From a virus (lineage: Duplodnaviria; Heunggongvirae; Uroviricota; Caudoviricetes): 25,083 nucleotides of DNA. How positions within the stretch are numbered: position 1 is the stretch's first letter; every line of letters starts with the position of its first letter. Shown here one piece after another: positions 1-24,413 of this stretch. The position numbers were made by a program, and so were the translations under genes. The notes under the pieces are model-generated. The model made no database searches and had not been told where the DNA came from. It worked only from the letters and a program-made list of their open reading frames with translations. The DNA is taken from the IMG/VR virus record IMGVR_UViG_3300027304_000003; one strand, 5' to 3'.

Positions 1-804
1 CTCCAGTTTCTCTATAGGATCTGAAGACCAACAGAATTCCAATTCAGGAATGTTTTTTGTTTCTTTCTCTCTAAGCCAAACGTTCCATAGCACAGCCCAC
101 ATATCTGCACACCAGCTTTGAAACCCTTTGTCTTCATTTTTGAAGAATTCTTTATTTATATTCTGAAGGTAAACACGTATTAGTATACAGTCATTCATTA
201 CCTTCTTCCAAAACTCACTGTCTATATTCTTAAGGAAGTATTGAGCTCCTCCTGAGTGATCATTGTTAGCTTCAGCTATCTCTCTTGTTATACCCACTAA
301 GCTTGTAAGCTCAGCTAAGACATCTCTAGTTCTATACTCTTCCAGTTTGTCTGGTAGAACATCTCTTTCTTTACTATCAAAATATGAAGCGTTGATATAA
401 CTGTTTGTATCAGACAAGTAGTTTATATCATCATCTTTAAATTTATCTATATCAAACTTTTCTGTGAAGATTACATCACAATCACAGTAAAATACTGCTT
501 TGGATACCATCTCAGGATTGTCCTGGAAATATCTCATTAAGCAGTATGGACGTAGGATAGGAATATAAACTCCTAAATACTTACTTACATCTCCTGTATC
601 CTTGTAGAAAGCAAACTTTGCTTCTGGATACAGTTCCATGATCTTCTCCCACTTTCCATTGTATTCTCTAAAACTAGGTGTATACACTAAGACAATTGCC
701 TTGTCTGAATGTCCAAGCTTCTTCAAGCTTTCCAACCATAGATGTACCTGCCATGTGTAGTATACATCATCTGGCTGTGCACAGATAAATTTAAGATCCT
801 TCAT
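1..804 (-). CDS. Glycosyltransferase resembling plant hydroxyproline O-arabinosyltransferase / peptidyl-serine galactosyltransferase (HPAT GT95 / SERGT GT96-like, GT-A); runs off the left edge
   Basis: Not in the ORF track; translated by hand from ATG 804, open to base 1 (268 aa). Starts MKDLKFICAQPDDVYYTWQVHLWLESLKK; contains YIPILRPYCLMRYF, DxD motif YCDCDVIF, GGAQYFL and WCADMWAVLWN. Confidence 0.7.
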   Translation of the reverse strand, partial: MKDLKFICAQPDDVYYTWQVHLWLESLKKLGHSDKAIVLVYTPSFREYNGKWEKIMELYPEAKFAFYKDTGDVSKYLGVYIPILRPYCLMRYFQDNPEMVSKAVFYCDCDVIFTEKFDIDKFKDDDINYLSDTNSYINASYFDSKERDVLPDKLEEYRTRDVLAELTSLVGITREIAEANNDHSGGAQYFLKNIDSEFWKKVMNDCILIRVYLQNINKEFFKNEDKGFQSWCADMWAVLWNVWLREKETKNIPELEFCWSSDPIEKLE

Positions 805-831
805 ATATGTAGTTTATTGGTTTTCTCTTTA

Positions 832-969
832 TTAAGGAGCAGGTGTGGTAGTTGTTGTTGTTGTCCCACCTTTATATAATATACCTGTAAGATATTCTAA
901 TTGCTTAGATATCTGCCAAAGTAATTTAGACTTTTGACTCCAGCCTATTTGTTGTGAAGGTATTGCCAT
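832..969 (-). CDS. 45-aa micro-protein, paralogue of the N-terminus of the adjacent fibre, with a Thr7-Pro-Ala-Pro tail
   Basis: Hand translation [45 protein letters not shown]. Matches [25 protein letters not shown] of 980..1981. ATG lies 10 nt after the upstream stop in an A-rich context. Confidence 0.85.
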   Translation of the reverse strand: MAIPSQQIGWSQKSKLLWQISKQLEYLTGILYKGGTTTTTTTPAP

Positions 970-979
970 TTTATTTTAT

Positions 980-1981
980 TTATCCTACTTGATTTACTGT
1001 TACAATAAGACCAGGAATAGCAGGAATGTTTCCTGTAGCTGCAGCTGATTGAATAGTTATTCCATCATCTACATTACTATTTATTTCCCATTTAAGTTGT
1101 ACATATTCATTAGCACTTGTTGTCTTAAAGAAAAAGTTCCATGCTGGTACAACATATATAGAGTTGGAAGGAAATCCTATTTGTGAAGCACTATTAGGTA
1201 CACTTACACCATTTTGTGCTAACCAAATATGTATATGTGATGCAGTATTACCAGCAGTCTTTTGCATCTGTGCACTAAACGCTATACTATATACACCAGG
1301 ATTAGCTATTGTTATTTGATTACCAGAAACAATTGAAACACCACTGTTCCAAGAATCTGAATTATTAAGACCCATTGTAAGAACAGTTCCTGCAAGACCT
1401 GTTTGACTTGTAGTATCATAGAAAGATCCTAAATAACCACCAACAGCTCCATTAGCTCCACTAGTTCCAGCAGTTCCTGTAAGACCAGCTGTTCCAGCTG
1501 TACCACTTACTCCTGAACTTCCTGATTCACCTGATGTTCCTGAAGTACCATCTATACCAGAAGTACCAGTTTCGCCACTTGTTCCTGATGAACCATTATC
1601 ACCTGAAGTTCCAGCTGTTCCATTTATTCCACTAGTACCATCTATACCAGAAGTTCCATCAATTCCTGAAGTACCACTTGTTCCACTAACTCCATTAGTA
1701 CCACTAACTCCATTAGTACCACTGATACCATTAGTACCACTGATACCATTGGTACCACTGATACCAGACGTACCAGAAAGACCTGAAGTTCCAGACGTAC
1801 CTACAACACCACTAGTTCCTGATGTTCCTGATAAACCAGCAGCACCACTAGTACCAGACGTACCTGTTCCACCACCACCTGCGTTGTATGCAACACCATT
1901 TATAGCCTCTAATTGCTTAGAAATTTGCCACAAGAGGTTTTCTTCTGTTCCCCATCCTATCTGTCTGCTTGGTATAGCCAT
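980..1981 (-). CDS. Gly-Thr-Ser repeat virion fibre-like protein with C-terminal C1q/BclA-C-like beta-sandwich
   Basis: About 140 aa of G-X-Y (GTS/GIS/GTN), followed by [11 protein letters not shown]...[10 protein letters not shown]...IWLAQNG...AWNFF...YVQLKW...[13 protein letters not shown]. Confidence 0.8.
1445..1870 (-). repeat. Coding 9-bp-period Gly-X-Y array, including a near-perfect 18-bp tandem at 1683-1766
   Basis: Units ccattagtaccactaact / ccattagtaccactgata / ccattagtaccactgata / ccattggtaccactgata. Confidence 0.9.
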
Positions 1982-2000
1982 GATTGCGAAAATTAATGTT

Positions 2001-2030
2001 CAAAGATATGTTACTTTTTAATATTAACAA
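2001..2030 (-). promoter_or_regulatory. Bacteroidota-type housekeeping promoter TTG-N19-TATCTTTG
   Basis: Minus strand TTG at 2030-2028, 19-nt spacer, TATCTTTG at 2008-2001; about 20 nt upstream of ATG 1981. Confidence 0.75.
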
Positions 2031-2082
2031 TGAGTGTCAATAATTTACAATAACAATTTTAGTTATATGTGTTTTAACTTTT

Positions 2083-2253
2083 TTAGTTAGAGAATCTTCC
2101 ATCAATCTTCCACATGATTTCATTCCCTATTTTGGTCTCAAGCTCAGGATTTACCACACTTAAAGTAAGCATAGTGAGCTGAAAGCCTAACGCAAACACT
2201 ACCCAGGCAAACATAAGACGTACAAATACATCAATAAATTTTATATTTTTCAT
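2083..2253 (-). CDS. 56-aa single-pass membrane protein
   Basis: Hand translation MKNIKFIDVFVRLMFAWVVFALGFQLTMLTLSVVNPELETKIGNEIMWKIDGRFSN*; ATGA overlap with the upstream gene. Confidence 0.7.
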   Translation of the reverse strand: MKNIKFIDVFVRLMFAWVVFALGFQLTMLTLSVVNPELETKIGNEIMWKIDGRFSN

Positions 2254-2372
2254 CGTCCTTGTCTATTATAAGGTTTAGTTGCTTTGTCCTTAGGACCTTT
2301 AAACTTGGTAGCTTTGCCACATTTACGCTTACCAAATGTAATTTTTCTTGAATTACCTACTGATTTTGCCAT
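2250..2372 (-). CDS. 40-aa highly basic peptide
   Basis: Hand translation MAKSVGNSRKITFGKRKCGKATKFKGPKDKATKPYNRQGR*; fills the gap exactly between its neighbours. Confidence 0.7.
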   Translation of the reverse strand: MAKSVGNSRKITFGKRKCGKATKFKGPKDKATKPYNRQGR

Positions 2373-2378
2373 ATTGGT

Positions 2379-2783
2379 TTATTTTAAACTTTGAAACTGT
2401 ATTAGAATAATTGCTATTAATATAATCTTTTGAGCTAAATGGTATCTCTCCATATTATCTATACTACTTTCTCTTCTAAAGAAAATGTCTCTGTTAGCCT
2501 CATACTTCCATTTGTATTGCATTGCATCATAAAGCTTTCTTCCTAGACTGTCACATTTGTTCTGTAATGAGTCTATAATAAGTCTATTTGCCTGAGCATC
2601 AACCTTTAATGAATCTATTTGAAACTTATATTGTTTATATAATGTATTAATTGCATTCCCTTGTTCAATGGTCATTATCACCACAGAATCCCTACCTATC
2701 TTTCTTGTCTTTGGGTATTGGGAATAGGATGAAATTGCTACCAGTGTCAGAACTAACACTATCAAGAGCTGCTTTAACTTCAT
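2379..2783 (-). CDS. Secreted coiled-coil protein with C-terminal hydrophobic segment (lysis accessory / spanin-like candidate)
   Basis: Signal peptide MKLKQLLIVLVLTLVAISSYS|Q, heptad-rich middle, C-terminal IILIAIILIQF. Confidence 0.6.
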   Translation of the reverse strand: MKLKQLLIVLVLTLVAISSYSQYPKTRKIGRDSVVIMTIEQGNAINTLYKQYKFQIDSLKVDAQANRLIIDSLQNKCDSLGRKLYDAMQYKWKYEANRDIFFRRESSIDNMERYHLAQKIILIAIILIQFQSLK

Positions 2784-3033
2784 TTAATTCTATTTTGAGA
2801 GTGGTAACCTCTTCTTTAAGGTTGGTTATGTTTTGAACTGTTTCCTTTACAATCTTCTTTTGTGTCTCAGTAGCCTGAGCTTGAACCTGTAGACTTAGTT
2901 TATTATTTGTTTCAACTTTGCTAAGAAGCTCTTCAAACTCCCTGTCTTCTTGAATAGAGCTATCAATTTTTTGAGCAGTTGTAGTTTGGCATCCATAGAT
3001 GAGTGGTATTAATATGATTAATAAATATTTCAT
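2692..3033 (-). CDS. Lipoprotein with coiled coil (o-spanin candidate)
   Basis: MKYLLIILIPLIYG|C lipobox-like signal; long heptad region; second gene after the endolysin. Confidence 0.6.
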   Translation of the reverse strand: MKYLLIILIPLIYGCQTTTAQKIDSSIQEDREFEELLSKVETNNKLSLQVQAQATETQKKIVKETVQNITNLKEEVTTLKIELNEVKAALDSVSSDTGSNFILFPIPKDKKDR

Positions 3034-3335
3034 TAGTTAAGTTTTTTGATTGCTCCCAACTGTTGCAAAGTTTGCAACTGTGTAGTAGTTACAGCCTTAG
3101 CTGAATCACTAACTCTTAAAGATTCTTGTACTCTATCTAATCTAGTTTCTACCTTATCAATACGTACATTCTGAGAAGCTGCTTGCTCTTTGAATGTTGT
3201 ACGAACATCTACGTATAGGTATGAAATAGCAATGAGCACCAAGAAAAGGGTGCCCACTATTGGGTTTTTAGCAAACTCCTTAAAGCTTATTGGCAAAGGA
3301 TTTGCTGAGATGTTTGTTTCTTTTTTCGCTGCCAT
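3033..3335 (-). CDS. Single-TM coiled-coil protein (i-spanin candidate)
   Basis: TM PIVGTLFLVLIAISYLYV then amphipathic helix; 1-nt stop/start overlaps with the endolysin and the lipoprotein. Confidence 0.55.
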   Translation of the reverse strand: MAAKKETNISANPLPISFKEFAKNPIVGTLFLVLIAISYLYVDVRTTFKEQAASQNVRIDKVETRLDRVQESLRVSDSAKAVTTTQLQTLQQLGAIKKLN

Positions 3336-3940
3336 TATATACTACCATTTAAAAGGTTATTGTATTCATTGAAGTGTTTGATACGATCTGGAAGACCAAT
3401 TGTTCCACCATTAACACGTTTAGTCACCTTAGTAACTACTACGTCTGTAGCCCCCTCGTCAGCAATCTTATGTAATCCATTCTTATGGAAGAACCAAGCT
3501 GCAGATAAAAGTGGGTACTTTGTAGCTACAAGATCTGGAGTAGCTAGGATGTCATCTTCTACAGTCTTGTCAAAAGCTGTATAGTTATCCTTTCCTGTTA
3601 ACTGGATGTAACCACGTCCTCTAAACTTATAGCCTTCACCAGAAGCCTGAGGACCATTACCCATACGATTAGCATAAACAATGTTAGCAATCTTTTCAGG
3701 CTTGCGTTGGTACTCTTTAGCACTTTCAGGTGTAAAATACTTCTTAAAGATGCTCTGTAAACCAGCAGCACCATAGTTTAAGTTTTCTGTAACAACTTTG
3801 AATCCACCAGATTCATGTCCACATTGGGCCAAGAAATGAGCTAAACGCAAAGGTGTATTGATTTCAAACTTATCTAATACACCAGGGATCTGTGCAATCA
3901 CTGTATCAGGAACATGTCCTTTTAACTTGTCTATGTTCAT
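3335..3940 (-). CDS. Endolysin, glycoside hydrolase family 19
   Basis: RLAHFLAQCGHESGGF, ENLNY, YKFRGRGYIQLTGKDNY, AAWF and TKRVNGG are GH19 phage lysozyme motifs. Confidence 0.95.
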   Translation of the reverse strand: MNIDKLKGHVPDTVIAQIPGVLDKFEINTPLRLAHFLAQCGHESGGFKVVTENLNYGAAGLQSIFKKYFTPESAKEYQRKPEKIANIVYANRMGNGPQASGEGYKFRGRGYIQLTGKDNYTAFDKTVEDDILATPDLVATKYPLLSAAWFFHKNGLHKIADEGATDVVVTKVTKRVNGGTIGLPDRIKHFNEYNNLLNGSI

Positions 3941-3942
3941 AG

Positions 3943-4539
3943 TTATTTAATTTTCCAATAGCTATTAAATCCATATATAACTTGGCTATTGTTGTTTATT
4001 CCAATATGTAAACCAAATATCTTATCCTTCTTAGTTTTGTAAAGTACTCCCCCCTGTATAGTTTGAAGTTCTAGTTGTTTGGTGTTGGTGAATCCACCAC
4101 CAATAAATAGAGCCCCCTTAGGAGGAGTCTGTTTAGTGATGATGTTTGTCACAGTAATTGTTGGGATCTTATAGTTGTATTTATAAGACCTGTTCTGTAG
4201 CTCGTTTTTATGTACTGTATCAGCTACAGCTACATAGCCTAAGGTATCTAGCTTGACAGTGTCAGCGTAGATCTTCTTTGCCAAATGGGCAACGACCAAA
4301 GCATCATATTGTGCTTTAAGCTTAGGGTAGTTTGTGTCTGCTATATATTCTGGAGGTAGTGTGTCATGGATTATCTCTTTAACCTTTAACTTCTTGATAA
4401 TCAATAAGTCATGATGTATCCAGGCTGTATCGTGTAACGTTACAGTATCAGCTTTTATTTGAGGAGCATTACATCCTTTGTGTTGAAGAGCCACTGTAAA
4501 CAGTAAAGCCATTATTACAAATACTAGAATTTTATTCAT
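3943..4539 (-). CDS. Envelope protein with N-terminal hydrophobic anchor and C-terminal amphipathic beta-strands (lysis accessory candidate)
   Basis: N-terminal hydrophobic stretch then KGC; C-terminal GALFIGGGF...GGVLYK...IFGLHIG...VIYGFNSYWKIK. Confidence 0.55.
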   Translation of the reverse strand: MNKILVFVIMALLFTVALQHKGCNAPQIKADTVTLHDTAWIHHDLLIIKKLKVKEIIHDTLPPEYIADTNYPKLKAQYDALVVAHLAKKIYADTVKLDTLGYVAVADTVHKNELQNRSYKYNYKIPTITVTNIITKQTPPKGALFIGGGFTNTKQLELQTIQGGVLYKTKKDKIFGLHIGINNNSQVIYGFNSYWKIK

Positions 4540-4783
4540 TATCTTCAGTTTGGTTTTTCTTATTGATAAACTTGTCTACAGAAGCAATTCCAAAACAAGC
4601 TATAGTCAAAACTTTGAATGAGTCATATATGAACTCATTGACAACCAACTCTTTATGTAATGTGCCAGTAACAATGTCTGCAATTGCAAACACTACCATG
4701 ATTACAAAAGAAGCAAAGCCAATTACAGCTTTCTCATTGATTGTGTTATTGTCATCAAATAGATCAGAGAAGAACTTTTTCAT
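4532..4783 (-). CDS. Holin-like two-TM protein
   Basis: 83 aa, two hydrophobic helices (AVIGFASFVIMVVFAIADIV; VLTIACFGIASV), charged C-terminus, upstream of the endolysin. Confidence 0.6.
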   Translation of the reverse strand: MKKFFSDLFDDNNTINEKAVIGFASFVIMVVFAIADIVTGTLHKELVVNEFIYDSFKVLTIACFGIASVDKFINKKNQTEDNE

Positions 4784-5066
4784 ATTTCTGTTTTTTTAAT
4801 AGGTCTTTATTAGGCAATATAGCATAATATGAGGTCATTAGAGACTCCTTAACTGGAAGATTAGAATAAGGAAAACTAGTTGTAGTCTTATACAATTGTC
4901 TCTCTAGGTTGTCAATACGTGTCTTATCTACATTAGACTGAGCCATCAAAGCTTTGACGTCAGACTTGATTTCGTTTACATCATTCCAAATTAGCAGGGC
5001 CATTGCTGATGCTAGACTTGGAAATATCCACACTTTAAATGCGTTAATTGCAGGGGTTTCTCTCAT
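4764..5066 (-). CDS. Single-TM coiled-coil protein (holin/antiholin-like); likely start ATG 5066
   Basis: MRETPAINAFKVWIFPSLASAMALLIW then heptads DVNEIKSDVKALMAQ...RIDNLERQL. Confidence 0.55.
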   Translation of the reverse strand: MRETPAINAFKVWIFPSLASAMALLIWNDVNEIKSDVKALMAQSNVDKTRIDNLERQLYKTTTSFPYSNLPVKESLMTSYYAILPNKDLLKKQKYEKVLL

Positions 5067-5123
5067 AGCTATAAATAAAAATGCACCCAAGTTGGGTGTA
5101 GTGTTTAAGATATTTAGATTTAA

Positions 5124-5327
5124 TTACTTCAGACCATACTTGATCCACTTGTACCATATACGCTCATGGATAAAGTATTGGATGGGCTTATAGATAAGCT
5201 CAGCTACACCAAAGGCAGCTCCCACCCTTATAGAACCAGATATCCACCACATCAAAAGGAACCCTATTAGGGTACTGATTATCCTATAGCTAATAGTCTT
5301 AGCTACATGTCTTTTAATTAGGGGCAT
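5124..5327 (-). CDS. DUF2061-like small membrane protein; likely start ATG 5327
   Basis: KRHVAKTISYRIIST...AELIYKPIQYFIHERIW matches the recalled K-x-x-S-W/Y-R ... Y-x-HER-x-W pattern. Confidence 0.8.
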   Translation of the reverse strand: MPLIKRHVAKTISYRIISTLIGFLLMWWISGSIRVGAAFGVAELIYKPIQYFIHERIWYKWIKYGLK

Positions 5328-5374
5328 GCTTAGGGGCAAAACTAAGTAAAAAAGTTGAAACTACCAAATCTTTT

Positions 5375-5752
5375 TTAGTAGGGCTGATAGGACTTCTCCT
5401 CTACAAAATCAGAGCCAAACTTCATATTAATTTCTTTCTTAATACGTGCTCTTTCATCATTCAATTTGTATACATTTCTAGCAAAAGCTACAAACTCTTT
5501 ACCAAAGTCTTTAGCTCTCTCTAGGTCCCTGAGATCATCTTCCACCTTCCATAGCTCCTTGTTGATTTCAAACAAGTTTTTGGTAAGAGGGTAGTCAGTC
5601 ATCAATGGATCTTCTGTTTTAAGAACCTCTATAAGATATATTAATTCTTTCTTAACATTCTCTAACTTAGTAGGGTCCTGTATCTTAGATGCTTTGATCA
5701 TAAGTATAGTGTACTTGTCTACAATTTCTCCTAATGAAACTTCAATTTTCAT
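5375..5752 (-). CDS. DUF6165-like protein
   Basis: IEVSLGEIVDKYTILMIK...INKELWKVEDDLR...FARNVYKLNDERARIKKEIN...GSDFVEEKSY matches the recalled family pattern. Confidence 0.8.
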   Translation of the reverse strand: MKIEVSLGEIVDKYTILMIKASKIQDPTKLENVKKELIYLIEVLKTEDPLMTDYPLTKNLFEINKELWKVEDDLRDLERAKDFGKEFVAFARNVYKLNDERARIKKEINMKFGSDFVEEKSYQPY

Positions 5753-5775
5753 AGCAAAATGTTTTTTATTTTAAA

Positions 5776-5806
5776 CAAAAGTAGTACATTTGTAGTAAAT
5801 ATCCAA
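5776..5806 (-). promoter_or_regulatory. Leftward Bacteroidota-type promoter TTG-N20-TACTTTTG
   Basis: Minus strand TTG at 5806-5804 and TACTTTTG at 5783-5776; 23 nt upstream of ATG 5752. Confidence 0.6.
5785..5792 (+). promoter_or_regulatory. Rightward Bacteroidota-type -7 element TACATTTG for the enzyme operon
   Basis: Exact TAnnTTTG 17 nt upstream of ATG 5810; no clear TTG at -33. Confidence 0.6.
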
Positions 5807-5809
5807 GAC

Positions 5810-6244
5810 ATGATTATAGTTATTTTTGGGCAGCCTGGAGCTGGTAAAACCACCATAGCCCAACACTTTGTCAAAGACACCTTTCATCATATTGATGGGG
5901 ACATATTACGAGACATTTTCAAGAACAAAGATTATAGTAGGGAAGGTAGGATCAAGAACCTAAATAGAGCTAGTGATATAGCCACCTACATAAACTCTGT
6001 ATACTCAAATGTAGTGTTATCAGTGGTGTATCCTTATGAAGAATGTAGAGAGTATCTAAACAAATTAAATAAAGGTGTTAAATGGATCTATCTCATCTAT
6101 CAAGAAGATAGAGGAAAAGACCAATTTAAAGTGGAAGATTTTGAGCTTCCATATATGGATAATGTAGATTTAATTCTAAACACTTCAGTAGACTCAGTGG
6201 ATGTGTGTGCTGATAAAATTAAAAATGTATGCAGAATATTCTAG
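5810..6244 (+). CDS. cysC: Adenylyl-sulfate (APS) kinase-like P-loop kinase; likely start ATG 5810
   Basis: IIVIFGQPGAGKTT Walker A, IDGDILR, DYSREGRIKNL, VYPYEECR and FELP match CysC-type motifs. Confidence 0.8.
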   Translation: MIIVIFGQPGAGKTTIAQHFVKDTFHHIDGDILRDIFKNKDYSREGRIKNLNRASDIATYINSVYSNVVLSVVYPYEECREYLNKLNKGVKWIYLIYQEDRGKDQFKVEDFELPYMDNVDLILNTSVDSVDVCADKIKNVCRIF

Positions 6245-6621
6245 CAAAGGGTAATGGTAAAGGAAATGGTTGGGCTATGTTTATAGGTAGATGGCAACCA
6301 TGGCATGAAGGACATAGATGGTTAATTGATCAACAGTTAAACCAGGGAAAGAAGGTATGTATAGCTATTAGAGATATGGAAACTGATGAAAAGAATCCAT
6401 ACTCAGCAATTCAAGTAATGATGAATATCACCAATGAATTAATAGATCTTGTAGAAGAGGGTATGATAAGAATCATGATTGTTCCTGATATAGAAAGTAT
6501 TAATTTTGGACGTGGTGTTGGCTATGATATCATTGAACATATTCCTCCTGCAGAAATACATGACATCTCAGCAACAAAAATTAGAGAACAAATGAATAAG
6601 AATGAAGAAGATATTTTATAA
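6229..6621 (+). CDS. Small HxGH nucleotidyltransferase (cytidyltransferase-like / ATP-sulfurylase superfamily)
   Basis: FIGRWQPWHEGH, ENPY-like KNPY, and C-terminal ISATKIR. Confidence 0.85.
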   Translation: MQNILAKGNGKGNGWAMFIGRWQPWHEGHRWLIDQQLNQGKKVCIAIRDMETDEKNPYSAIQVMMNITNELIDLVEEGMIRIMIVPDIESINFGRGVGYDIIEHIPPAEIHDISATKIREQMNKNEEDIL

Positions 6622-7420
6622 CGCATCACTGCCTAGATCTGGGTCTACATTATTGCAAAATGTGCTAGCACAAAACCCAGACATATATGCCACTCCTACT
6701 AGTGGTCTATCTACATTACTGCAATCAGCAAAAGAAACATACAGTAGGCGATCTGAGTTTGCTGCATTAGATACAGCTCTTATGAAGAAAGCTTTCTTAG
6801 GATTTTTAAGAGGAGGTATAGAAGGATTTACTAATAATCTTTCAGACAAGCAGTATATCTTAGATAAAAGTTTTAACTGGGGAGGTGATTACTATCTATT
6901 GAAATATATGTTCAATGGAGAGTCACCAAAGATTATAATAATGGTAAGAGATTTGCGTGAAACAATTGCTTCTATGGAATCACAGTATAGATTCTCTCCA
7001 CAACATGTCTATCCTAAAGTTGATTTAGAAACTACACAACTTACTACCTTAGAAAAAAGATTAAAATATTGGGGGACTACTAATCCTTTTGGATTGACTT
7101 TAGATTTTCTTCAAGAGATATTTACAGCTAAGATAGAGAATGAAATATTTTTTGTAAAGTTTGAGGACTTTTGTCAATTTCCAGAACCTATCATAAGGAG
7201 TTTATATAAATATTTAGAAATCCCATATTTTGCTCATGACTTTGATAACATTGAACAAGTGACTGATCAGAACGATGGGTTCTATATATTCAGTCATAAG
7301 ATACGAAAACAACTAAGACCTGTTGAACCTAAGGCTTTAGATATACTTGGACCAGAAGCATGTAACTGGGTGTATAAAAATTATGAGTGGTTCTTTAAAA
7401 AGTTTAATTATGCCTTATAG
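6602..7420 (+). CDS. PAPS-dependent sulfotransferase
   Basis: 5'-PSB loop SLPRSGSTLL, LDKS, 3'-PB IIIMVRDLRETIAS, VKFEDF. Confidence 0.9.
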   Translation: MKKIFYNASLPRSGSTLLQNVLAQNPDIYATPTSGLSTLLQSAKETYSRRSEFAALDTALMKKAFLGFLRGGIEGFTNNLSDKQYILDKSFNWGGDYYLLKYMFNGESPKIIIMVRDLRETIASMESQYRFSPQHVYPKVDLETTQLTTLEKRLKYWGTTNPFGLTLDFLQEIFTAKIENEIFFVKFEDFCQFPEPIIRSLYKYLEIPYFAHDFDNIEQVTDQNDGFYIFSHKIRKQLRPVEPKALDILGPEACNWVYKNYEWFFKKFNYAL

Positions 7421-17479: not shown

Positions 17480-17848
17480 TTACTGATTGTTATTTTGTAA
17501 CCAAGTTGGTTTAATTAAAACGACTTTAGGAGTCACTTTATCTTCAAGTCTTTTATCTATCATGTTAGCTTTTATCCAAGCCATGTTTCTTTTCTTTCTA
17601 TTCTCACTAATCTCAACCCACGATTGAAGTACTTGAGGAGTTAATTGCTCAAAAGCAATGAACTCACCAGGAGCAACATCAGGTTTAATAGTAGTAGTAG
17701 CAGAGTATCTTTCTTCATGTATATTACCTGCAGCATCAACTGCTGTACCAACTAGAAACCAACTAATCTTCAATACAACTTGAGAATGACCTTCTAACGT
17801 TGGTGCTACGTGCAAATCATCAAGTATGAAATTATAATTAACTACCAT
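17480..17848 (-). CDS. Small phage protein, probably fibre-associated
   Basis: YNF...VV.KISW...G......FIAFEQLT...L.SWV resembles small proteins recalled beside S74 fibres; located between fibre genes. Confidence 0.5.
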
Positions 17849-17858: not shown

Positions 17859-19142
17859 TTATAAATTATCTATTTTTTTGTTTAGTTCCTGTAAAGCTTT
17901 TAAAGCAACACCTATACTGTTAGTGATATCCATTTTATCATGATTTGGACCTGCAAATTCTTCAGCTGTATCATCTGCAATGAATCCTAACTTTACATGA
18001 TTATACATTGGATTCTCAAGTTCATATTCAACTATATCTACAGTGTTTATTAAATCAACTGCACATGCTTGATAAGGTTTAATATCTGTCTTATATATTG
18101 ATGAAGATGTACCAAAGTAGTTACTAGAACCTACTACGCCAGCAGAAACCCAGTTACCATTACTATACCAATATGCTCCTTGATTAGCACTACATGCTGC
18201 TTGATTTTGAATTCTCCATCCACCACCAGAATAAGCTTCATTCTGAGTAACTGTATTACTAAATTGAACAGCATCTCCTTGGTTAAGTGATTGATTGTAA
18301 ATTGTCTGAGGGCCTTGTCCACCTGGAGAGCCTGTAGGGCCTTGTGCACCAGCTGGACCTTGAGCACCCCCTGGACCAGTGCCCCCTTGAGGACCAGTGC
18401 CACCTTGTGGACCTCTTGGTCCTTGTGCTCCTTGTGCTCCTTGTGCTCCTGTTGCACCATTAACACCAGATGTACCACCTGCTCCTTGAGCTCCAGTGGG
18501 ACCAATTGGCCCTTGTCCACCAGTAGGACCTGTGGGTCCATTTACTCCTGATCCACCACTTGGACCACTTGCACCAGCTTTACCTGATCCACCACTTGCA
18601 CCAGCAGATCCAGATGTACCATTTGATCCTGAGCCACCACTGTTACCAGCTGAGCCTGAATTACCATTTGATCCTTTTCCACCAGCAGCTCCTGATGTTC
18701 TACTATTACCAGAACTACCATGAGCTCCAGCTTTACCACTAGATCCAGATTGACCACGTGTACCTGACGTACCTGTTGTTCCTGCACTACCAGCATCTCC
18801 TGATTGACCAGAAGTATTTGACTTACCTCCTTTACCAGAACTTCCTGATTGACCAGGTGCTCCATCTTTACCTGAGCTTCCACTTTCACCAGCTTTACCT
18901 GATGAACCTCCAGAAGCAGATGTTCCAGAAGAGCCAGGTGTACCAGTTAAGTTAACTGTCCAAGAGCTATATGTACCACTACCTTTCCAAGCAGTGGGAG
19001 TAATTGTTATTGAACCTGTTCCTTTATTATATGACACAACAGTACCAATGACATAGTTATCAGCATCATGGCTTAATTGTACATTATCACCTGCTTGATA
19101 AGCTAGCTCAGTATTTATATTAAAGGTCATGTTAGCTGGCAT
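17859..19142 (-). CDS. Tail fibre with Lys-containing G-X-Y array, collagen segment and S74 chaperone
   Basis: SSSIYKTDI...LGFIADD...ALQEL. Confidence 0.85.
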   Translation of the reverse strand: MPANMTFNINTELAYQAGDNVQLSHDADNYVIGTVVSYNKGTGSITITPTAWKGSGTYSSWTVNLTGTPGSSGTSASGGSSGKAGESGSSGKDGAPGQSGSSGKGGKSNTSGQSGDAGSAGTTGTSGTRGQSGSSGKAGAHGSSGNSRTSGAAGGKGSNGNSGSAGNSGGSGSNGTSGSAGASGGSGKAGASGPSGGSGVNGPTGPTGGQGPIGPTGAQGAGGTSGVNGATGAQGAQGAQGPRGPQGGTGPQGGTGPGGAQGPAGAQGPTGSPGGQGPQTIYNQSLNQGDAVQFSNTVTQNEAYSGGGWRIQNQAACSANQGAYWYSNGNWVSAGVVGSSNYFGTSSSIYKTDIKPYQACAVDLINTVDIVEYELENPMYNHVKLGFIADDTAEEFAGPNHDKMDITNSIGVALKALQELNKKIDNL

Positions 19143-20451
19143 TGTTCTTCTTATTTTGTAGGTTTACAATTCTTGCGTCAATCTCTTGTATAGCTTTTAA
19201 AACAAATGCTAAGGTACAACTTATTTCCATTTGATTTTTTGAATCAGTGGATAATTCTTTAGGAGTATTTTCAGCAATAAATCCTATTCTCTTATCCTCA
19301 TCACATTGTTCTATCTCTAAATTATAAGATACTATATCAACTTGTTTTAATAAATCCACTGCAGAAGGAGCATATGATTGGATGTTAGTCTTAGTATCTC
19401 TAGTTGATGTAATATAAAAACTAGCAGCACCTAATGATGCAGGAGTATACCAACCTGGACCAAAGCCTGTCCAACCTGCACCTTGATTTGCACCTTGCAC
19501 AAATTGCTTATAGTTATTAAAATATGTTCTATAATTTATTGTAGGAGCAACAGCACCAGCAAAGTTTGTAAAAACCATTGTTGGGCCTGCGTTAATATTC
19601 AAATTTTGATTATATGAAGCAGATGTACCTGTTGGTCCCTGAGCTCCAGTAGCTCCAGTTGGGCCTTGCCCTCCAGTAGGTCCTTGAGGTCCTTGTGGAC
19701 CTGGAGCACCTGCAGCACCTGGTGGACCTTGTCCACCAGCAGGACCTGTTGGACCTTGAGGACCAGTAGCTCCAGAAGATCCAGAAGCACCTTTGCCACC
19801 TGTTGCTCCTTGAGGTCCTGTTGGACCTATAGGTCCTTGAGGTCCTGTAGCTCCACTTGATCCAGAGGTTCCAGTTGTACCAGTAGATCCAGCAGTACCA
19901 GTAGATCCAGAGGTTCCTGAACTACCACTTGTACCTGATGCACCAGATGTTCCACTTGATGCACTACTTCCACTTGTTCCTGAAGTACCTGCTGTACCAG
20001 CAGATCCAGATGTTCCAGTAGATCCTGAGTCACCAACTGTTCCTGAACTAGCAGAAGTACCAGAAGATCCACTAGAATTACTTTCTGCAGATGTGCCACT
20101 TGTACCTGTAGATCCTGAACTGCCTTCTGTTCCAGCTGTGCCAGTTGTTCCAGCAGTTCCTGTTGTACCATTTGTACCAGAGGAACCACTTGTTCCAGCT
20201 GTACCTGTAGTACCAGATGATCCTGCAGTTCCAGCACTTCCATTGTATCCAGTGAGGGTTGCTGTCCAGCTACTAAACGTACCTGATCCAACTGCCTCAT
20301 ATGGAGTAACAACTAAATCACCAGTGGCTGGGTTGTAAGATACAACCCTACCAGTGATGTAGTTATTTGAATTAGCTGCAACTTTGACAAAGTCATCCAC
20401 TTTGAATGCACGACCTGTGGTGATATTGAATGTTATATTACTGTAAGGCAT
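19132..20451 (-). CDS. Tail fibre with GTS array, collagen segment and S74 chaperone
   Basis: STRDTKTNI...IGFIAEN...AIQEI. Confidence 0.85.
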   Translation of the reverse strand: MPYSNITFNITTGRAFKVDDFVKVAANSNNYITGRVVSYNPATGDLVVTPYEAVGSGTFSSWTATLTGYNGSAGTAGSSGTTGTAGTSGSSGTNGTTGTAGTTGTAGTEGSSGSTGTSGTSAESNSSGSSGTSASSGTVGDSGSTGTSGSAGTAGTSGTSGSSASSGTSGASGTSGSSGTSGSTGTAGSTGTTGTSGSSGATGPQGPIGPTGPQGATGGKGASGSSGATGPQGPTGPAGGQGPPGAAGAPGPQGPQGPTGGQGPTGATGAQGPTGTSASYNQNLNINAGPTMVFTNFAGAVAPTINYRTYFNNYKQFVQGANQGAGWTGFGPGWYTPASLGAASFYITSTRDTKTNIQSYAPSAVDLLKQVDIVSYNLEIEQCDEDKRIGFIAENTPKELSTDSKNQMEISCTLAFVLKAIQEIDARIVNLQNKKNNAS

Positions 20452-20460: not shown

Positions 20461-21804
20461 TTAAGCAGGAGGTAATGTTTCTGTTGTACCACTTGTTCCT
20501 GAGTATATTGTTGTTTCACCTGATGTTGCTGCAGTTCCAGAAGAAGCACTTGTACCTGCTGAGGCACTTGTGCCAGATGTCCCACTTGATCCACTTGACG
20601 CAGACGTTCCATTAGTACCAGATGTTCCACTAGTACCAGAGCTTCCATCAGTACCTGATGTACCACTTGAACCTGATGTACCACTAGTTCCAGATGAACC
20701 ATCTGTTCCTGATGTAGCATCTTGTCCACTTGTACCAGCAGATGCTGAAGTACCTGCAGTACCTGAGCTACCACTTACACCAATAACGTTAAAATAGAAT
20801 ACATCATTAACATCTGGATCAGGACCTGCAGAAGCAATCTGTGAAACAGAGAATTGCTCAAAGCCAGGCTCCAATGGATCTCTTGCTGTAATTAATAATA
20901 TTTTATATGTATTCTTATCATCATTCTTAACTATCTTAAGAACTGTATTAGGTTGTAAATAGTCAAGGTAAGATGAGAAGTTAATTGCTGGGTCATAAGA
21001 TATGTTGTCAATAGCAATGCTTGTTGTAGTTGTACCCCAAGTTAAGCCACTGCTTAGAGCAAAGAAACCACTGCCTGGATCTGTTCCTGTGTTTGTAGAA
21101 CTAGATAATCTCCAAGTAGCTAAGTTACCATCCAAACCTTGCAAACCAGAAGTACCTGATGTACCATCACCTCCAGCAGCACCACCTAAGTTCACTTGCC
21201 ATGCTGTGTATGTACCAGAACCAGCAGTAGCACTAACGCTAACTGACATGGCACCTGTACCTGCGTCATATGATAACACATCACCACCCATACTATTACT
21301 TATGTCATAAGCAATAACTACCACCTGTCCTACAGTGTACGCTAACCCTGTACCAACAGTTAAGTTTTGTGTACCAGTTCCTATTGTTAAGCTACTAACT
21401 GATGTTGTTTTGTATAAGTCTCCAGAAAGACCTGCTGTACCAGAAGATCCACTTGTACCAGAAAGACCAGAAGTTCCAGCAGTTCCACTAGAACCATTGG
21501 TTCCTGAGCTACCATCTGTTCCACTGGAACCATTTGTTCCACTAGATCCATTGGTTCCACTAGAACCATCAGTGCCAGATGTTCCACTTGATCCTGGTAT
21601 ACCTGAACCAATTACAGTCCAACTAGTATATGTACCACTACCAACATAGTTTGTTGGTTCAAATACTAAGATTCCTGTAATTGAATCATATGTAACCACT
21701 TGACCATATAAGAAATTATTCTCATCATTGATCACTTGGATGTACTGACCAAGAACAAAGTTCAAATTAGGTTGTACTGTTATTGTAATATTAGCGTAAG
21801 GCAT
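20461..21804 (-). CDS. GTS-repeat fibre/adaptor with two copies of the ~65-aa module and one further globular domain
   Basis: N-terminal and internal (21187-21420) modules ending GSGTY.(S/A)W.V; domain DPGSGFFAL...YLDYL. Confidence 0.75.
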   Translation of the reverse strand: MPYANITITVQPNLNFVLGQYIQVINDENNFLYGQVVTYDSITGILVFEPTNYVGSGTYTSWTVIGSGIPGSSGTSGTDGSSGTNGSSGTNGSSGTDGSSGTNGSSGTAGTSGLSGTSGSSGTAGLSGDLYKTTSVSSLTIGTGTQNLTVGTGLAYTVGQVVVIAYDISNSMGGDVLSYDAGTGAMSVSVSATAGSGTYTAWQVNLGGAAGGDGTSGTSGLQGLDGNLATWRLSSSTNTGTDPGSGFFALSSGLTWGTTTTSIAIDNISYDPAINFSSYLDYLQPNTVLKIVKNDDKNTYKILLITARDPLEPGFEQFSVSQIASAGPDPDVNDVFYFNVIGVSGSSGTAGTSASAGTSGQDATSGTDGSSGTSGTSGSSGTSGTDGSSGTSGTSGTNGTSASSGSSGTSGTSASAGTSASSGTAATSGETTIYSGTSGTTETLPPA

Positions 21805-21827
21805 TTATATTTATTTTATATTTTTAT

Positions 21828-24413
21828 TTATATTGCACAAGTTGCAGAACAATCTGTTCCAGCTGATGCAGCTGTACTAAGATCAACAATAGGTGTTCCA
21901 GCTGGAGCTCCAAAGTTAACTTGGTAAACATAACCATCACCTATATTGTAATAATCTCCATTAGTTAATAATACTGTAGAAACTGCAAGTATTGATGGTG
22001 CAAATAGTGTACATCCTGGACAGTTATATTGATCTACATTATAGTAGTATACAGGTGCTGCTGTTGTTGTAGTAGATGTTGTAGATGTTGTACTTGTTGT
22101 TGTTGTAGCTTCAGCAGGAGGAATAGTGATTGAATCTCCAGATGTACCTAATGTACTTGTTGATGTACCAGAAGTTCCTGTTGTACCTGTTGTACCAGCA
22201 GTACCTGCTGTTCCACTAGATCCATCAGTTCCAGTTGTACCAGCAGTTCCACTTGAACCATTAGTACCTGAAGTTCCACTAGTGCCTGAACTTCCATCAG
22301 TTCCACTTGTTCCACTTGTACCACTTGATCCATCTGTACCTGTTGTTCCACTTGTTCCACTAGAGCCATCTGTACCAGAGGTACCAGAAGAGCCATCTGT
22401 TCCTGAAGAACCATCTGTACCTGTTGTACCTGAGGTTCCACTAGATGCAGATGTTCCTGATGAACCATCAGTACCAGCTGTTCCAGCTGTACCACTAGAA
22501 CCTGAAGTTCCACTTGATCCATCAGTGCCACTTGTACCTGAACTACCATCAGTTCCTGAACTACCATCAGTGCCAGAAGTTCCAGACGAACCATCTGTAC
22601 CACTTGTTCCTGCAGTTCCAGATGAACCTGAGGTTCCACTAGAAGCTGAAGTACCACTTGATGCAGAAGTACCACTAGAACCATCTGTTCCAGTTGTACC
22701 ACTAGTACCACTTGAGCCATCAGTTCCAGTTGTACCTGACGTACCTGTTGTACCACTTGTTCCTGTAGTGCCACTTGTACCAGAAGAACCAGAGGTACCT
22801 GTTGAACCTGACGAACCAGAAGTTCCAGATGATGCAGATGTACCACTTGATCCATCTGTAGCAGATGTTCCAGATGTTCCAGAAGAAGCAGACGTACCAG
22901 ACGTTCCACTTACTGCCACACCAATTTGTTTAGCGTATGCAGTTACTGCTGGAGCAGCAGGAGATAAATATGGACTGATTAATTGAGGAATTGCTTTGAT
23001 CCTAGCAGTGCTATCGTCACAAGCAAAATACCACTCAATATAATCACCTGGTAGTAAGTTTATAATTTGTGCTGTATGTGGTAATTGTTCTACTTCTTGA
23101 CCAACAAGTTCAATAGAAACTTTACTATTAGCTAAATCAGAACCATTAAGTCTTAACCATACATTTAATGTAGCACTACCAGGAGTTTGTTTATCAACAA
23201 TTGCTGTGAATGCAAACTCATATTGTCCAGGATATGCTACTACCAATCTTGATCCCAAGACATTTGTAATACCATATGATAATTCTGTATTTGTATAATA
23301 CCAAGCTGTTGGTGTATTCGCAGCACTAACTTGTTGAGATACTGAAGAATACCACTGACCATACCAGTTAGCAATGGCTGTACCAGAGCTACCATCTGCA
23401 CCAGATGTGCCTGAAGTACCAGATGTTCCAGGAACACCAGAAGTACCAGCTGTTGCTGATGTACCATTAGTACCAGACGTACCACCTGATCCTGTTGATC
23501 CTGTACCTCCTGAAGTACCAGAAGTACCTGTAATACCACTAGAACCATTGGTACCACTAGAGCCATTTGTTCCACTTGATCCACTAGTTGCACTTGATCC
23601 AGAAGATCCTGAGGTTCCTGTAGATCCAGATGTACCAGAGCTTCCACTTGTACCACTAGAACCATCACCACCTGCTGCTCCAGCTAAGTTAACTGACCAT
23701 ACTGAGTATGTGCCAGAACCAGCAACGTCTGTAGGAGTATCAAAAGTCAACACTCCTGTAGTAGGATTATAAGAAATTATCTCAGAAGTTTGGTGATTGC
23801 TTGCATTATATGCTATGATTACGTTCTGTGCTGCTGTATAAGCTAAGCCTAATCCAATAACAATAGAACCTGCAGCACCTAATGTAAATGTGCTACTAGA
23901 TATAGTTGCATATCTGTCACCTGAAATACCAGAAGAACCTGCTGTTCCTGAGCTAGCAGATGTTCCACTAGATGCAGAAGATCCAGACGTACCACTAGAG
24001 CCTGAGCTACCAGATGTAGCAGAGGTTCCTGATGTACCATTATTTCCACTAGAGCCAGAACTGCCTGATGAACCTGATGTTCCAGCAGTACCATTCTTTC
24101 CAGAGCTACCAGAGCTTCCTGATGTACCAGCTGTACCTGAATTACCAGAGCTAGCAGAAGTACCAGCAGTTCCTGAAGTGCCTGACTTACCACTAGAACC
24201 TGCTGTTCCAGATGTGCCATTCTTTCCAGAGGAACCAGAGGTACCAGACGTACCATAGCCAGCTGATGCAAAAGCTGCATCAATCTTCTCTAATGCTGTT
24301 TGTAAATTGTCGTTAGTATTAATACCAGAGTATACAAGGTATGGGCCTTCGTAGAATACGCAGGTCGAATCCAGTATTACTGGGCAAGGGATTGCTTGAC
24401 AGGTGACGTTCAT
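21828..24413 (-). CDS. Large GTS/GSS-repeat virion protein: Cys-containing N-terminus, internal module, C1q/BclA-C-like domain, poly-Thr stalk, Cys-rich C-terminus
   Basis: CVFYEG...NDNLQTALEKID; internal module at 23685-23918; beta-sandwich at 22921-23370; TTTTSTTSTTSTTTT; CPGC...CSATC. Confidence 0.75.
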   Translation of the reverse strand: MNVTCQAIPCPVILDSTCVFYEGPYLVYSGINTNDNLQTALEKIDAAFASAGYGTSGTSGSSGKNGTSGTAGSSGKSGTSGTAGTSASSGNSGTAGTSGSSGSSGKNGTAGTSGSSGSSGSSGNNGTSGTSATSGSSGSSGTSGSSASSGTSASSGTAGSSGISGDRYATISSSTFTLGAAGSIVIGLGLAYTAAQNVIIAYNASNHQTSEIISYNPTTGVLTFDTPTDVAGSGTYSVWSVNLAGAAGGDGSSGTSGSSGTSGSTGTSGSSGSSATSGSSGTNGSSGTNGSSGITGTSGTSGGTGSTGSGGTSGTNGTSATAGTSGVPGTSGTSGTSGADGSSGTAIANWYGQWYSSVSQQVSAANTPTAWYYTNTELSYGITNVLGSRLVVAYPGQYEFAFTAIVDKQTPGSATLNVWLRLNGSDLANSKVSIELVGQEVEQLPHTAQIINLLPGDYIEWYFACDDSTARIKAIPQLISPYLSPAAPAVTAYAKQIGVAVSGTSGTSASSGTSGTSATDGSSGTSASSGTSGSSGSTGTSGSSGTSGTTGTSGTTGTSGTTGTDGSSGTSGTTGTDGSSGTSASSGTSASSGTSGSSGTAGTSGTDGSSGTSGTDGSSGTDGSSGTSGTDGSSGTSGSSGTAGTAGTDGSSGTSASSGTSGTTGTDGSSGTDGSSGTSGTDGSSGTSGTTGTDGSSGTSGTSGTDGSSGTSGTSGTNGSSGTAGTTGTDGSSGTAGTAGTTGTTGTSGTSTSTLGTSGDSITIPPAEATTTTSTTSTTSTTTTAAPVYYYNVDQYNCPGCTLFAPSILAVSTVLLTNGDYYNIGDGYVYQVNFGAPAGTPIVDLSTAASAGTDCSATCAI
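22140..24255 (-). repeat. Three coding Gly-X-Y (GTS/GSS/GTD) arrays, synonymously diversified
   Basis: 9-bp periodicity from cc(a/t) every third codon on the plus strand; interrupted by two globular domains. Confidence 0.9.

Follow-up and report, generated by a model that had tools for sequence, protein, structure and literature searches.

Candidate fibre O-glycosylation genes beside Ser/Thr-rich collagen-like arrays in an uncultured tailed phage

Known glycosylation systems and the phage locus

To our knowledge, enzymes of the TibC/Aah (BAHT) family are known only as modifiers of bacterial adhesins, and glycosylation of phage virions has been shown experimentally only in some mycobacteriophages; Freeman et al. 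are said to have described virion O-glycosylation for mycobacteriophages Che8, Corndog and Myrna in Cell Host Microbe in 2023 (cited in PMC12619734). Here, we analysed a 25,083-nucleotide stretch of DNA (hereafter the window) from an uncultured tailed phage (Caudoviricetes; IMG/VR record IMGVR_UViG_3300027304_000003). It encodes a TibC-like glycosyltransferase (GT; gene 13772-14869) and a second transferase resembling SERGT and HPAT enzymes (gene 1-804), together with Ser/Thr-rich fibre proteins and a poly-Thr micro-protein. Our results suggest, with moderate confidence, that the phage enzymes O-glycosylate the phage's own fibres; this reading is based on family membership, catalytic residues, folds and gene neighbourhoods, from which we infer the substrates, the order of steps and the sugars. 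Both of the protein-priming transferase types proposed in an initial annotation of the window are present, and each recurs beside a candidate acceptor in unrelated phages. A literature search found no paper on TibC-like or SERGT/HPAT-like enzymes in phages, nor on either pairing.

The phage TibC-like enzyme shares with the TibC-TibA and Aah-AIDA-I systems of E. coli (TIGR04414; 4RAP/4RB4; PMC4358343) the family, the catalytic Asp, the Thr/Lys/Trp residues that bind phosphate and sugar, and the four-Cys iron finger. In E. coli a cytoplasmic enzyme hyper-glycosylates Ser of a long repetitive protein encoded nearby, and the same is predicted for the phage. However, the candidate acceptor of the phage enzyme is a collagen-like fibre array, in contrast to the beta-helical autotransporter passenger of the E. 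coli systems; no autotransporter was found in the window or in related loci, where the neighbours are Gly-X-Y array genes. Moreover, the phage enzyme sits in a five-gene transferase cassette, and its Arg-286 is replaced, so that the donor nucleotide may differ.

The mycobacteriophage systems are similar in that phage-encoded GTs act on the phage's own virion proteins, and among the Gram-positive relatives of the gene 1-804 enzyme (family phrog_4417) the candidate acceptors are likewise C-terminal tails of capsid or tail-tube proteins; the enzyme families and the host phylum differ, and the candidate acceptors in our locus are poly-Thr tails, fibre arrays and a micro-protein. The plant and algal peptidyl-serine alpha-galactosyltransferase SERGT1/SGT1 (GT96) and the hydroxyproline O-arabinosyltransferases HPAT/RDN (GT95) resemble the gene 1-804 enzyme over its whole length in the GT-A fold with its DxD motif. 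They start O-glycans where repetitive structural proteins carry runs of hydroxy-amino acids, as predicted for the phage enzyme. Unlike these Golgi membrane enzymes, to which it is ~12% identical, the phage enzyme is predicted to be soluble and cytoplasmic, and its acceptor is probably Thr. BclA of the Bacillus anthracis exosporium carries a collagen-like Gly-X-Thr array, the Thr residues of which are heavily O-glycosylated by dedicated cytoplasmic transferases, and forms a hair-like nap. As in the phage fibres, a bacterial-type collagen-like array is placed on a surface; however, the BclA enzymes belong to a rhamnosyl/anthrose pathway, the surface is that of a spore, and the repeats are GPT with Pro at X. 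Finally, COLGALT1/GLT25D1, LH3/PLOD3 and the mimivirus proteins L230 and R699, the latter a proven collagen glucosyltransferase (PMC9546862, PMC12279948), recall our locus in the combination of viral collagen-like proteins, tandem GT-A domains and 2-oxoglutarate (2OG) oxygenases. In contrast to the animal and mimivirus enzymes, the phage protein has no Pfam GT25 hit, the phage arrays have almost no Lys at Y, and no lysyl hydroxylase domain was identified.

Two transferase types beside candidate acceptors

Judged by its sequence, the gene 13772-14869 product is a BAHT family member with intact active-site residues. It exceeds the 200-bit cut-off of TIGR04414, a curated whole-protein (equivalog) model for autotransporter O-heptosyltransferases, with residues 33-364 aligned to model positions 27-374, and phmmer matched it to TibC (PDB 4RAP) at E 1.5e-47. 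The roles assigned to TibC residues are catalytic base for Asp-110, donor binding for Thr-226, Lys-230 and Trp-305, contact to adenine N1 for Arg-286, and iron finger for Cys-339, Cys-342, Cys-358 and Cys-370 (PMC4358343). The phage equivalents of the first four (D105, T217, K221 and W282) are invariant in a set of 70 unique phage and metagenome-assembled homologues, and the iron-finger equivalents (C317, C320, C336 and C348) are kept in 68-69 of them, the rest being gaps. The position of TibC Pro-300 is Ser in the phage enzyme, as in Aah. The Arg-286 equivalent is Val, so that the residue on which the use of an ADP-activated sugar is based in TibC is replaced; among the 70 homologues this position is Thr in 31, Val in 22, Arg in eight, Ala in six and Ile in three. 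Moreover, gmhA was looked for in five related phage genomes and found in none. Homologue searches with the TibC-like, phrog_4417 and 887-aa proteins gave only close relatives (at least 70% identity), and diversity was drawn from a representative library and from viral loci.

The candidate acceptors of this enzyme are six proteins that score 60-177 bits against Pfam Collagen (PF01391; cut-off 27.2 bits) and together contain 389 Gly-X-Y triplets in unbroken runs; X is Thr in 42% of the triplets, and Y is Ser in 49%. Given these scores and triplet counts, the Gly-Thr-Ser (GTS) arrays of the initial annotation, the six Gly-(Thr/Ser)-rich proteins and poly-Thr micro-protein (832-969) of which we confirmed, are collagen-type Gly-X-Y repeats, the triple helix itself being predicted only. 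Pro is found mainly in three fibres matched by the tail-fibre chaperone domain Peptidase_S74 (two over the cut-off, one borderline) and is scarce in the other collagen-like proteins. Lys occupies Y in two of the 389 triplets and X in nine. Animal-type hydroxylysine-linked glycosylation was rejected on the former count, and hydroxylysine-linked sugars on the fibres are unlikely. A module of ~68 amino acids (aa), probably a shared attachment or trimerisation module, begins four of the fibre proteins (copies 51-66% identical) and recurs inside the 447-aa protein (aa 150-208) and the 861-aa protein (aa 186-245).

To follow the TibC-like gene and such arrays across genomes, IMG/VR was scanned with the TibC-like alignment, which gave at least 580 loci; the best 80 (46-79% identity, on contigs of up to 322 kb) were examined. 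Gly-X-Y arrays are present in 62 of these 80 loci, nearly all with 80-97% Ser/Thr at X/Y. The array mostly lies in a convergent gene that begins 0.4-2.5 kb past the TibC-like gene, and some of the products exceed 3000 aa. When the count was limited to loci with 9 kb or more of flank on the side in question, Ser/Thr arrays lay downstream of the TibC-like gene in 38 of 49 loci and upstream in 9 of 75. Clustering of 98 TibC-like loci at 65% identity gave 24 clusters. In 20 of them a Ser/Thr array gene lies no more than 10 kb away, and of the remaining four, three have cut flanks. The pairing also occurs in the 735-kb phage LR756501 and in Microcystis phage Mel-JY01, whose TibC domain is part of a larger fused enzyme, and it holds for 32-39% identical homologues on contigs binned to bacteria. 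Collagen-like genes were found in all five genomes of relatives, each of which had been found through cassette genes; three of three cultured distant relatives lack both collagen-like genes and TibC. Owing to the breadth of the pairing and its positional bias, the most economical reading of these gene neighbourhoods is an enzyme-acceptor relation, in which the TibC-like enzyme acts on Ser/Thr Gly-X-Y arrays.

Several of these loci showed further features. In Mel-JY01 (L010), the TibC domain forms the C-terminus of a 1226-aa protein annotated 'FkbM methyltransferase', and a plus-strand frame at 2-3049 contains 202 Gly-X-Y triplets, extends past the start of the record and overlaps two annotated minus-strand coding sequences; a giant collagen-like gene is thus probably missing from the deposited annotation. 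In contigs binned to Arenicellales and other Gammaproteobacteria (L104-L106, L108, L109, L111), the TibC-like genes are flanked by genes for lipoproteins of 113-217 aa with a GCGGG lipobox, GSS/GTS arrays and poly-Asp/Glu ends, possibly a class of bacterial glycolipoproteins. Small open reading frames (ORFs; ~120-145 aa) with poly-Thr tails lie directly past the TibC-like gene in four loci (L026 11462-11827, L034 11333-11722, L043 11758-12117 and L099 6441-6878) and sit before the giant fibre gene, where one is present.

Of the second transferase, encoded by gene 1-804, the window includes 268 of the 338 aa, and the C-terminal 70 aa lie beyond its edge; full-length phrog_4417 relatives have 338 aa, and the family comprises 772 clusters at 50% identity in the representative library. 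The gene 1-804 product had no Pfam or NCBIfam match at E 0.01. A full-length relative (P0121) was modelled on 80 homologues (pLDDT 97.5). In a Foldseek search of afdb_swissprot the model matched Arabidopsis SERGT1 (Q8VYF9) best (E 2.7e-9, TM 0.58) and Q8W4E6 over query residues 2-335 (E 5.6e-8, TM 0.62); the fold matches include HPAT1-3 (TM 0.58-0.62), with glycogenin and GNT1 next. Identity in the SERGT1/HPAT structural alignments is 11-13%, and glycogenin (GT8) is nearly as good a match in the PDB. SERGT1, HPAT1-3 and glycogenin, the top folds, all use protein acceptors, and the DxD residues D108/D110 are invariant in the 80 homologues (30-49% identity to the query). According to the predicted structure, the enzyme folds like plant SERGT1/HPAT, and the HPAT likeness claimed initially held at the level of the fold.

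Of 18 phrog_4417 loci, 17 have a poly-Thr tract just upstream of the gene on the same strand, for the most part as a C-terminal tail and otherwise as a linker; the background for poly-Thr ORF ends is about 0.9 per 100 kb. In the window, the tract belongs to the 45-aa micro-protein, in which an N-terminal peptide common to the adjoining fibre is followed by GG-T7-PAP. This design, directly upstream of the GT gene, is kept in eight loci (L001-L007 and L027) with varying linkers, and in the window lineage T7 is followed by PAP, AAP or ATP. In more distant phages, the phrog_4417 homologue directly follows the major tail protein gene (Enterococcus phage phiFL1A, Clostridium phage phiCTP1), or it comes after the capsid gene (Enterococcus phage 4995_1, Lacticaseibacillus phage R3.3) or a gene annotated as major tail protein (Staphylococcus phage PMBT8), and in all five the upstream product ends in a poly-Thr tail, which in PMBT8 comprises sixteen Thr. 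Chryseobacterium phage MA9V-3 has the phrog_4417 enzyme and poly-Thr linkers, with neither TibC nor collagen-like genes; hence, the TibC and phrog_4417 systems are separable modules. In Enterococcus phage Planchet (L116), the 228 nt (2273-2500) that separate the annotated capsid gene from the phrog_4417 homologue encode a long poly-Thr tract in a frame other than that of the capsid gene's end; this may be a small gene missing from the annotation, or the capsid protein may be extended by a frameshift.

The conserved cassette, accessory genes and phage identity

The window holds five GT genes with seven GT domains; these genes, the sulfation module and the methyltransferase are all present where the initial annotation had placed them. 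In the 80 viral loci, the TibC-like gene co-occurs with genes for DUF6165 (46 loci), GT9 (49), the 887-aa protein (43) and GT4 (54). The accessory genes are more variable: kinase in 16 loci, sulfotransferase in 14, nucleotidyltransferase in five, DUF2061 in five, P4H-like (prolyl 4-hydroxylase-like) oxygenase in 21 and methyltransferase in two.

The GT9 enzyme is distantly similar to the TibC-like protein of the window. D16, at the catalytic-base position, and C266/C270/C293/C302 do not vary among 34 homologues (37-88% identity), and the C-terminal Cys cluster, which ends in FEC-H, resembles the TibC iron finger. The four-Cys tail attributed to both GT9-fold enzymes was confirmed at the motif level. 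Aa 320-887 of the 887-aa protein had no PDB sequence match, and neither aa 320-650 nor aa 651-887 matched a Pfam family at E up to 1, Glyco_transf_25 included. A model of aa 320-887 (pLDDT 79.7, built on 33 homologues) aligned end to end in Foldseek with human COLGALT1, LH3 and mimivirus R699 (E 1e-10 to 1e-7) and with 9EVJ over model residues 1-567 (E 1.2e-10), and all 30 top Swiss-Prot fold matches are COLGALT, GT25 or PLOD (procollagen lysyl hydroxylase) proteins. TM is 0.25-0.28 only, because the domain orientation differs. By single domains, VIA-align scored GnT-I (Z 15.8), POMGNT1 (Z 15.0) and glycogenin (Z 13.8) best, COLGALT1 giving Z 13.4 over both domains (rmsd 13.9). Hence, of the GT25 likeness proposed for this protein, the tandem GT-A similarity to COLGALT1 stood, but there is no Pfam hit and the best matches per domain are GnT-I and glycogenin; in its predicted structure, the C-terminal part has a collagen-galactosyltransferase-like tandem GT-A architecture with no established GT25 membership.

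The accessory genes start with a kinase resembling adenosine 5'-phosphosulfate (APS) kinase, with a P-loop and a DGDxxR motif recognised by eye; the NCBIfam adenylyl-sulfate kinase models match it best, all below their cut-offs. The 130-aa nucleotidyltransferase, a candidate APS-forming enzyme, has an archaeal nicotinamide mononucleotide adenylyltransferase (NMNAT) as its best NCBIfam match, below cut-off, and no ATP-sulfurylase family matched in the NCBIfam scan; a PF01467 search recovered only this gene, already known. In phrog_10255 (230 positions), the N-terminal half resembles the window kinase and the C-terminal half the 130-aa enzyme. As this family spans both, the two are fused in other phages, in an order that recalls bifunctional synthases of 3'-phosphoadenosine 5'-phosphosulfate (PAPS), which we take as a lead only. 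The only PDB sequence relative of the sulfotransferase is protein-tyrosine sulfotransferase 1, and it is weak (E 4e-4). In 13 loci the kinase is accompanied by the sulfotransferase, but in most of these the nucleotidyltransferase is lacking. Among close relatives the four sulfation-related genes are jointly present or jointly absent; the DUF2061 gene comes and goes with the sulfation genes. The proposed sulfation module was retained in its kinase and sulfotransferase, both over Pfam cut-offs, but the 130-aa enzyme scores as NMNAT-like and not as an ATP sulfurylase. The methyltransferase ORF is listed with a TTG start and a 74-nt overlap with the sulfotransferase gene (7347-7420); an in-frame ATG 12 codons downstream of the TTG is the likelier start.

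As to the four 2OG oxygenases annotated initially, three are over Pfam cut-offs (genes starting at 7909, 14866 and 15549), but the fourth (13179, DUF6445) was assigned from an HxD...H pattern only, by which it is probably a 2OG-oxygenase-like cupin. The P4H-type enzyme matches PiuC-type hydroxylases and prolyl 4-hydroxylase 6IUQ (E 1e-3) among PDB sequences, and in eight of eight orthologous loci (at least 55% identity) with enough flank, no more than about 50 nt separate its gene from one for a Pro-containing S74 fibre. That it would act on fibre Pro is only partly supported.

The window proteins were scanned against Pfam, PHROGs and NCBIfam, and the features are collected in Table 1. They form three blocks: a minus-strand block (1-5752), a tightly packed plus-strand operon of eleven genes (5759-15513) and a minus-strand fibre operon (24413->15549). 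The first runs from gene 1-804 through the 45-aa ORF, the 333-aa fibre, small membrane/coiled-coil proteins, the GH19 endolysin and DUF2061 to DUF6165. The plus-strand operon has the order APS-kinase-like protein, 130-aa nucleotidyltransferase, sulfotransferase, methyltransferase, Oxy_5, GT9, 887-aa protein, GT4, DUF6445, TibC/Aah and Oxy_5, and the fibre operon comprises genes for five collagen-like proteins and a DUF7936 protein and closes with that of the P4H/PKHD-type oxygenase.

Table 1. Features of the window with coordinates, strand and supporting matches
Feature	Coordinates	Strand	Evidence
GT-A glycosyltransferase, phrog_4417, candidate poly-Thr O-glycosyltransferase	1-804	-	phrog_4417 E 1e-45; fold
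45-aa micro-protein, candidate glycan acceptor, ends GGTTTTTTTPAP	832-969	-	ORF; conserved in relatives
Collagen-like fibre, 333 aa, 49 Gly-X-Y triplets (X mostly Thr, Y mostly Ser), globular C-terminal head	980-1981	-	PF01391 E 4.6e-21; tail-fibre PHROGs
GH19 endolysin	3335-3940	-	phrog_181 E 4e-68
DUF2061 small membrane protein	5124-5339	-	PF09834 E 5.8e-15
DUF6165 protein, first member of conserved cassette	5375-5752	-	PF19662 E 2e-11
APS-kinase-like P-loop kinase	5759-6244	+	PF01583 38.7 bits (cut-off 21.1)
130-aa HxGH nucleotidyltransferase, candidate APS-forming enzyme	6229-6621	+	PF01467 20.9 bits
PAPS-type sulfotransferase	6602-7420	+	PF13469 49.6 bits; PF00685 38.5 bits
Class I S-adenosylmethionine (SAM) methyltransferase (weak)	7347-7907	+	Methyltransf_23 24.5 bits, below cut-off 27; motif ILDVGPGAG
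2OG-Fe(II) oxygenase, Oxy_5 type	7909-8559	+	PF13759 49.1 bits; phrog_81
GT9-fold glycosyltransferase, TibC-like four-Cys C-terminal cluster, no N-terminal barrel	8559-9512	+	PF01075 83 bits
887-aa transferase: GT4 (aa 1-319), GT-A, beta-sandwich, second GT-A	9509-12172	+	PF00534; predicted structure for aa 320-887
GT4 glycosyltransferase	12169-13182	+	PF00534 28.7 bits
DUF6445 protein	13179-13775	+	PF20043 50.6 bits; HxD...H pattern
TibC/Aah-family (BAHT) protein O-glycosyltransferase	13772-14869	+	TIGR04414 243.3 bits (cut-off 200)
2OG-Fe(II) oxygenase, Oxy_5 type	14866-15513	+	PF13759 71 bits
P4H/PKHD-type 2OG oxygenase	15549-16142	-	PF13640 50 bits
Collagen-like fibre, Pro-containing triplets, S74 chaperone domain	16179-17477	-	PF01391; PF13884 32.1 bits (cut-off 22)
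DUF7936 small protein between fibre genes	17480-17848	-	PF25590 31 bits
Collagen-like fibre, borderline S74	17859-19142	-	PF01391; PF13884 19.1 bits, below cut-off 22
Collagen-like fibre with S74	19132-20451	-	PF01391 92 bits; PF13884 24.0 bits
Pro-poor Gly-Thr/Ser-Ser collagen-like protein (447 aa), internal copy of N-terminal module	20461-21804	-	PF01391
861-aa Gly-Thr-Ser collagen-like protein, 127 triplets, TTTTSTTSTTSTTTTAAP tract near C-terminal domain	21828-24413	-	PF01391 177 bits, 9 stretches

No cultured phage matched the whole window by megablast. Its relatives in IMG/VR, with 887-aa proteins 78-88% identical, lie on contigs of 60-117 kb, two of them rated complete. For G001, a complete relative of 117.6 kb, the terminase shares 40% identity with its counterpart in Leptolyngbya phage Lbo-JY46, 31% with those of Cellulophaga phages phi4:1 and phi17:2 and 26-28% with those of crAss-like phages. 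The window covers the end of the phage genome that carries the fibre and lysis genes; the phage is uncultured, measures about 100-117 kb and, by terminase identity, is distantly related to Cellulophaga phi4:1-like and crAss-like phages. In G001 (L014-L016), genes for giant proteins of 1583, 1135, 976, 894, 4129, 1653 and 2631 aa precede the cassette (50712-90910), the last of these proteins being collagen-like, and the fibre that adjoins phrog_4417 lacks a long Gly-X-Y array. The lysis block of the window (2379-5090) has small membrane proteins on both sides of the endolysin, and the overlapping ORFs 2692-3033 (lipobox LIYGC) and 2379-2783, near the endolysin gene, resemble a spanin pair. This lipobox-bearing, spanin-like pair beside the endolysin suggests a Gram-negative host, and a host in Bacteroidota is plausible.

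Proposed mechanism, alternative readings and significance

We postulate that the fibre subunits would be made in the cytoplasm, where soluble enzymes would O-glycosylate their Gly-X-Y arrays before virion assembly. The TibC-like enzyme would prime Ser, the commonest Y residue, in the Gly-X-Ser arrays, and the GT9, GT4 and tandem GT-A enzymes would probably extend the same glycans from the TibC-primed Ser. Separately, the SERGT/HPAT-like enzyme of gene 1-804 would load poly-Thr tags, namely the T7-PAP tail of the micro-protein and, as a probable second target, the T-rich-AAP tract of the 861-aa fibre. The variable accessory genes (kinase, nucleotidyltransferase, sulfotransferase, DUF2061, methyltransferase and the four oxygenase-type genes) may decorate the glycans or the fibres. 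Glycosylated Thr stabilises Riftia collagen and BclA, and by analogy the phage glycans could serve to stabilise Pro-poor triple helices and to form a glycan nap.

Several observations weigh against fibre glycosylation or parts of it. With Arg-286 replaced and no gmhA in related phage genomes, the donor may not be ADP-heptose, and heptose, the sugar suggested at first by the TibC/Aah likeness, was not upheld. TibC-like loci with full flanks and no array exist (L063, L066, L075 and L107), and in the window itself the arrays nearest to the TibC-like gene are those of the Pro-containing S74 fibres, the Pro-free GTS genes beginning 5.6 kb away. The loci are, moreover, phylogenetically non-independent, and the control for the arrays was internal (upstream versus downstream flanks) and did not use random genomes. 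Gene position is all from which we infer a link of sulfation, methylation and hydroxylation to the fibres; accessory genes are gained and lost among close relatives, and among loci with a P4H-like gene, including more distant homologues, 14 of 22 have Pro-free arrays. The full glycoprotein 'factory' of the initial annotation, with its sulfated, methylated and hydroxylated glycans, is much less likely than fibre glycosylation as such. A yet wider version would be a collagen maturation pathway of the phage's own, convergent with those of animals and mimivirus: TibC-type glycosylation of Ser at Y, extended by the COLGALT1-like, GT4 and GT9 enzymes, would replace hydroxyproline as the stabiliser of proline-free helices, sulfation with phage-made PAPS would give proteoglycan-like fibres, and a docking micro-protein would independently be capped on its poly-Thr tail, the two systems representing new and widespread classes of virion glycosylation. 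We regard this version as speculative and, taken as a whole, improbable.

The cassette could, instead, be directed at the host. Under this alternative, which we consider unlikely, the operon 5759-15513 would be a host-conversion cassette that remodels the lipopolysaccharide (LPS) core, O-antigen, capsule or a glycolipid, for instance to block superinfection or to aid release, and its proximity to the fibres would be the usual placement of cargo. The GT9 enzyme indeed scores best against LPS heptosyltransferase models, GT4 enzymes are typical of polysaccharide synthesis, both of which also count against fibre glycosylation, and in PHROGs the oxygenases and GTs are classed under auxiliary metabolic genes; the site between fibre and lysis genes is common for cargo, and the gain and loss of accessory genes would fit. 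However, only the TibC-like protein could be assigned to a curated family, and this family is known solely for O-glycosylation of protein Ser. The link of the TibC-like protein to arrays, strongly biased to the downstream side, extends down to 32% identity and is seen both in phages of 50-735 kb and on bacterial contigs. The GT9 enzyme carries a TibC-type four-Cys cluster, and we know of no such cluster in the LPS heptosyltransferases WaaC and WaaF. Furthermore, the Pfam scans of the window genes showed no undecaprenyl-phosphate transferase, flippase or polymerase.

More doubtful still is the possibility that the transferases act on other virion proteins, on small secreted or host proteins, or that arrays and enzymes merely travel together as a mobile module. 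The small poly-Thr-tailed ORFs between the TibC-like gene and the giant fibres in L026, L034, L043 and L099 could be such other substrates, the neighbours of the TibC-like gene in several bacterial contigs are small lipoproteins and not fibres, and several TibC-like loci lack arrays. What the TibC-like neighbours have in common, phage fibres and bacterial lipoproteins alike, is nevertheless an acceptor-like Gly-Ser/Thr-Ser array, and hitch-hiking of a module does not explain its persistence over distant lineages in which the flanking genes are unrelated. DNA is a frequent substrate of phage GTs (discussed in PMC12619734), and the GTs could accordingly modify phage DNA bases with sugars against restriction; we think this very improbable, given that no genes for hydroxymethyl-pyrimidine synthesis were seen in the window, that BAHT, GT9, SERGT/HPAT-like GT-A and sulfotransferase enzymes are not known as DNA-modifying, and that the genes are placed in the fibre module rather than a replication module.

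The window is unusual in that both systems, a sulfation set and four oxygenase-type genes occur in one phage. If fibre glycosylation is correct, the TibC-like enzymes (at least 580 IMG/VR loci) and phrog_4417 (772 clusters), a family that includes phages of Enterococcus, Staphylococcus and lactic acid bacteria, would mark a widespread, unrecognised sugar-coating of fibres, tails and capsids. It would also provide a source of protein-glycosylating enzymes with simple tags, i.e., Gly-Thr-Ser arrays and poly-Thr tails, for glyco-engineering. Moreover, it would bear on the stabilisation of proline-free collagen-like helices, as well as on host recognition, virion stability and the recognition of therapeutic phages by antibodies.

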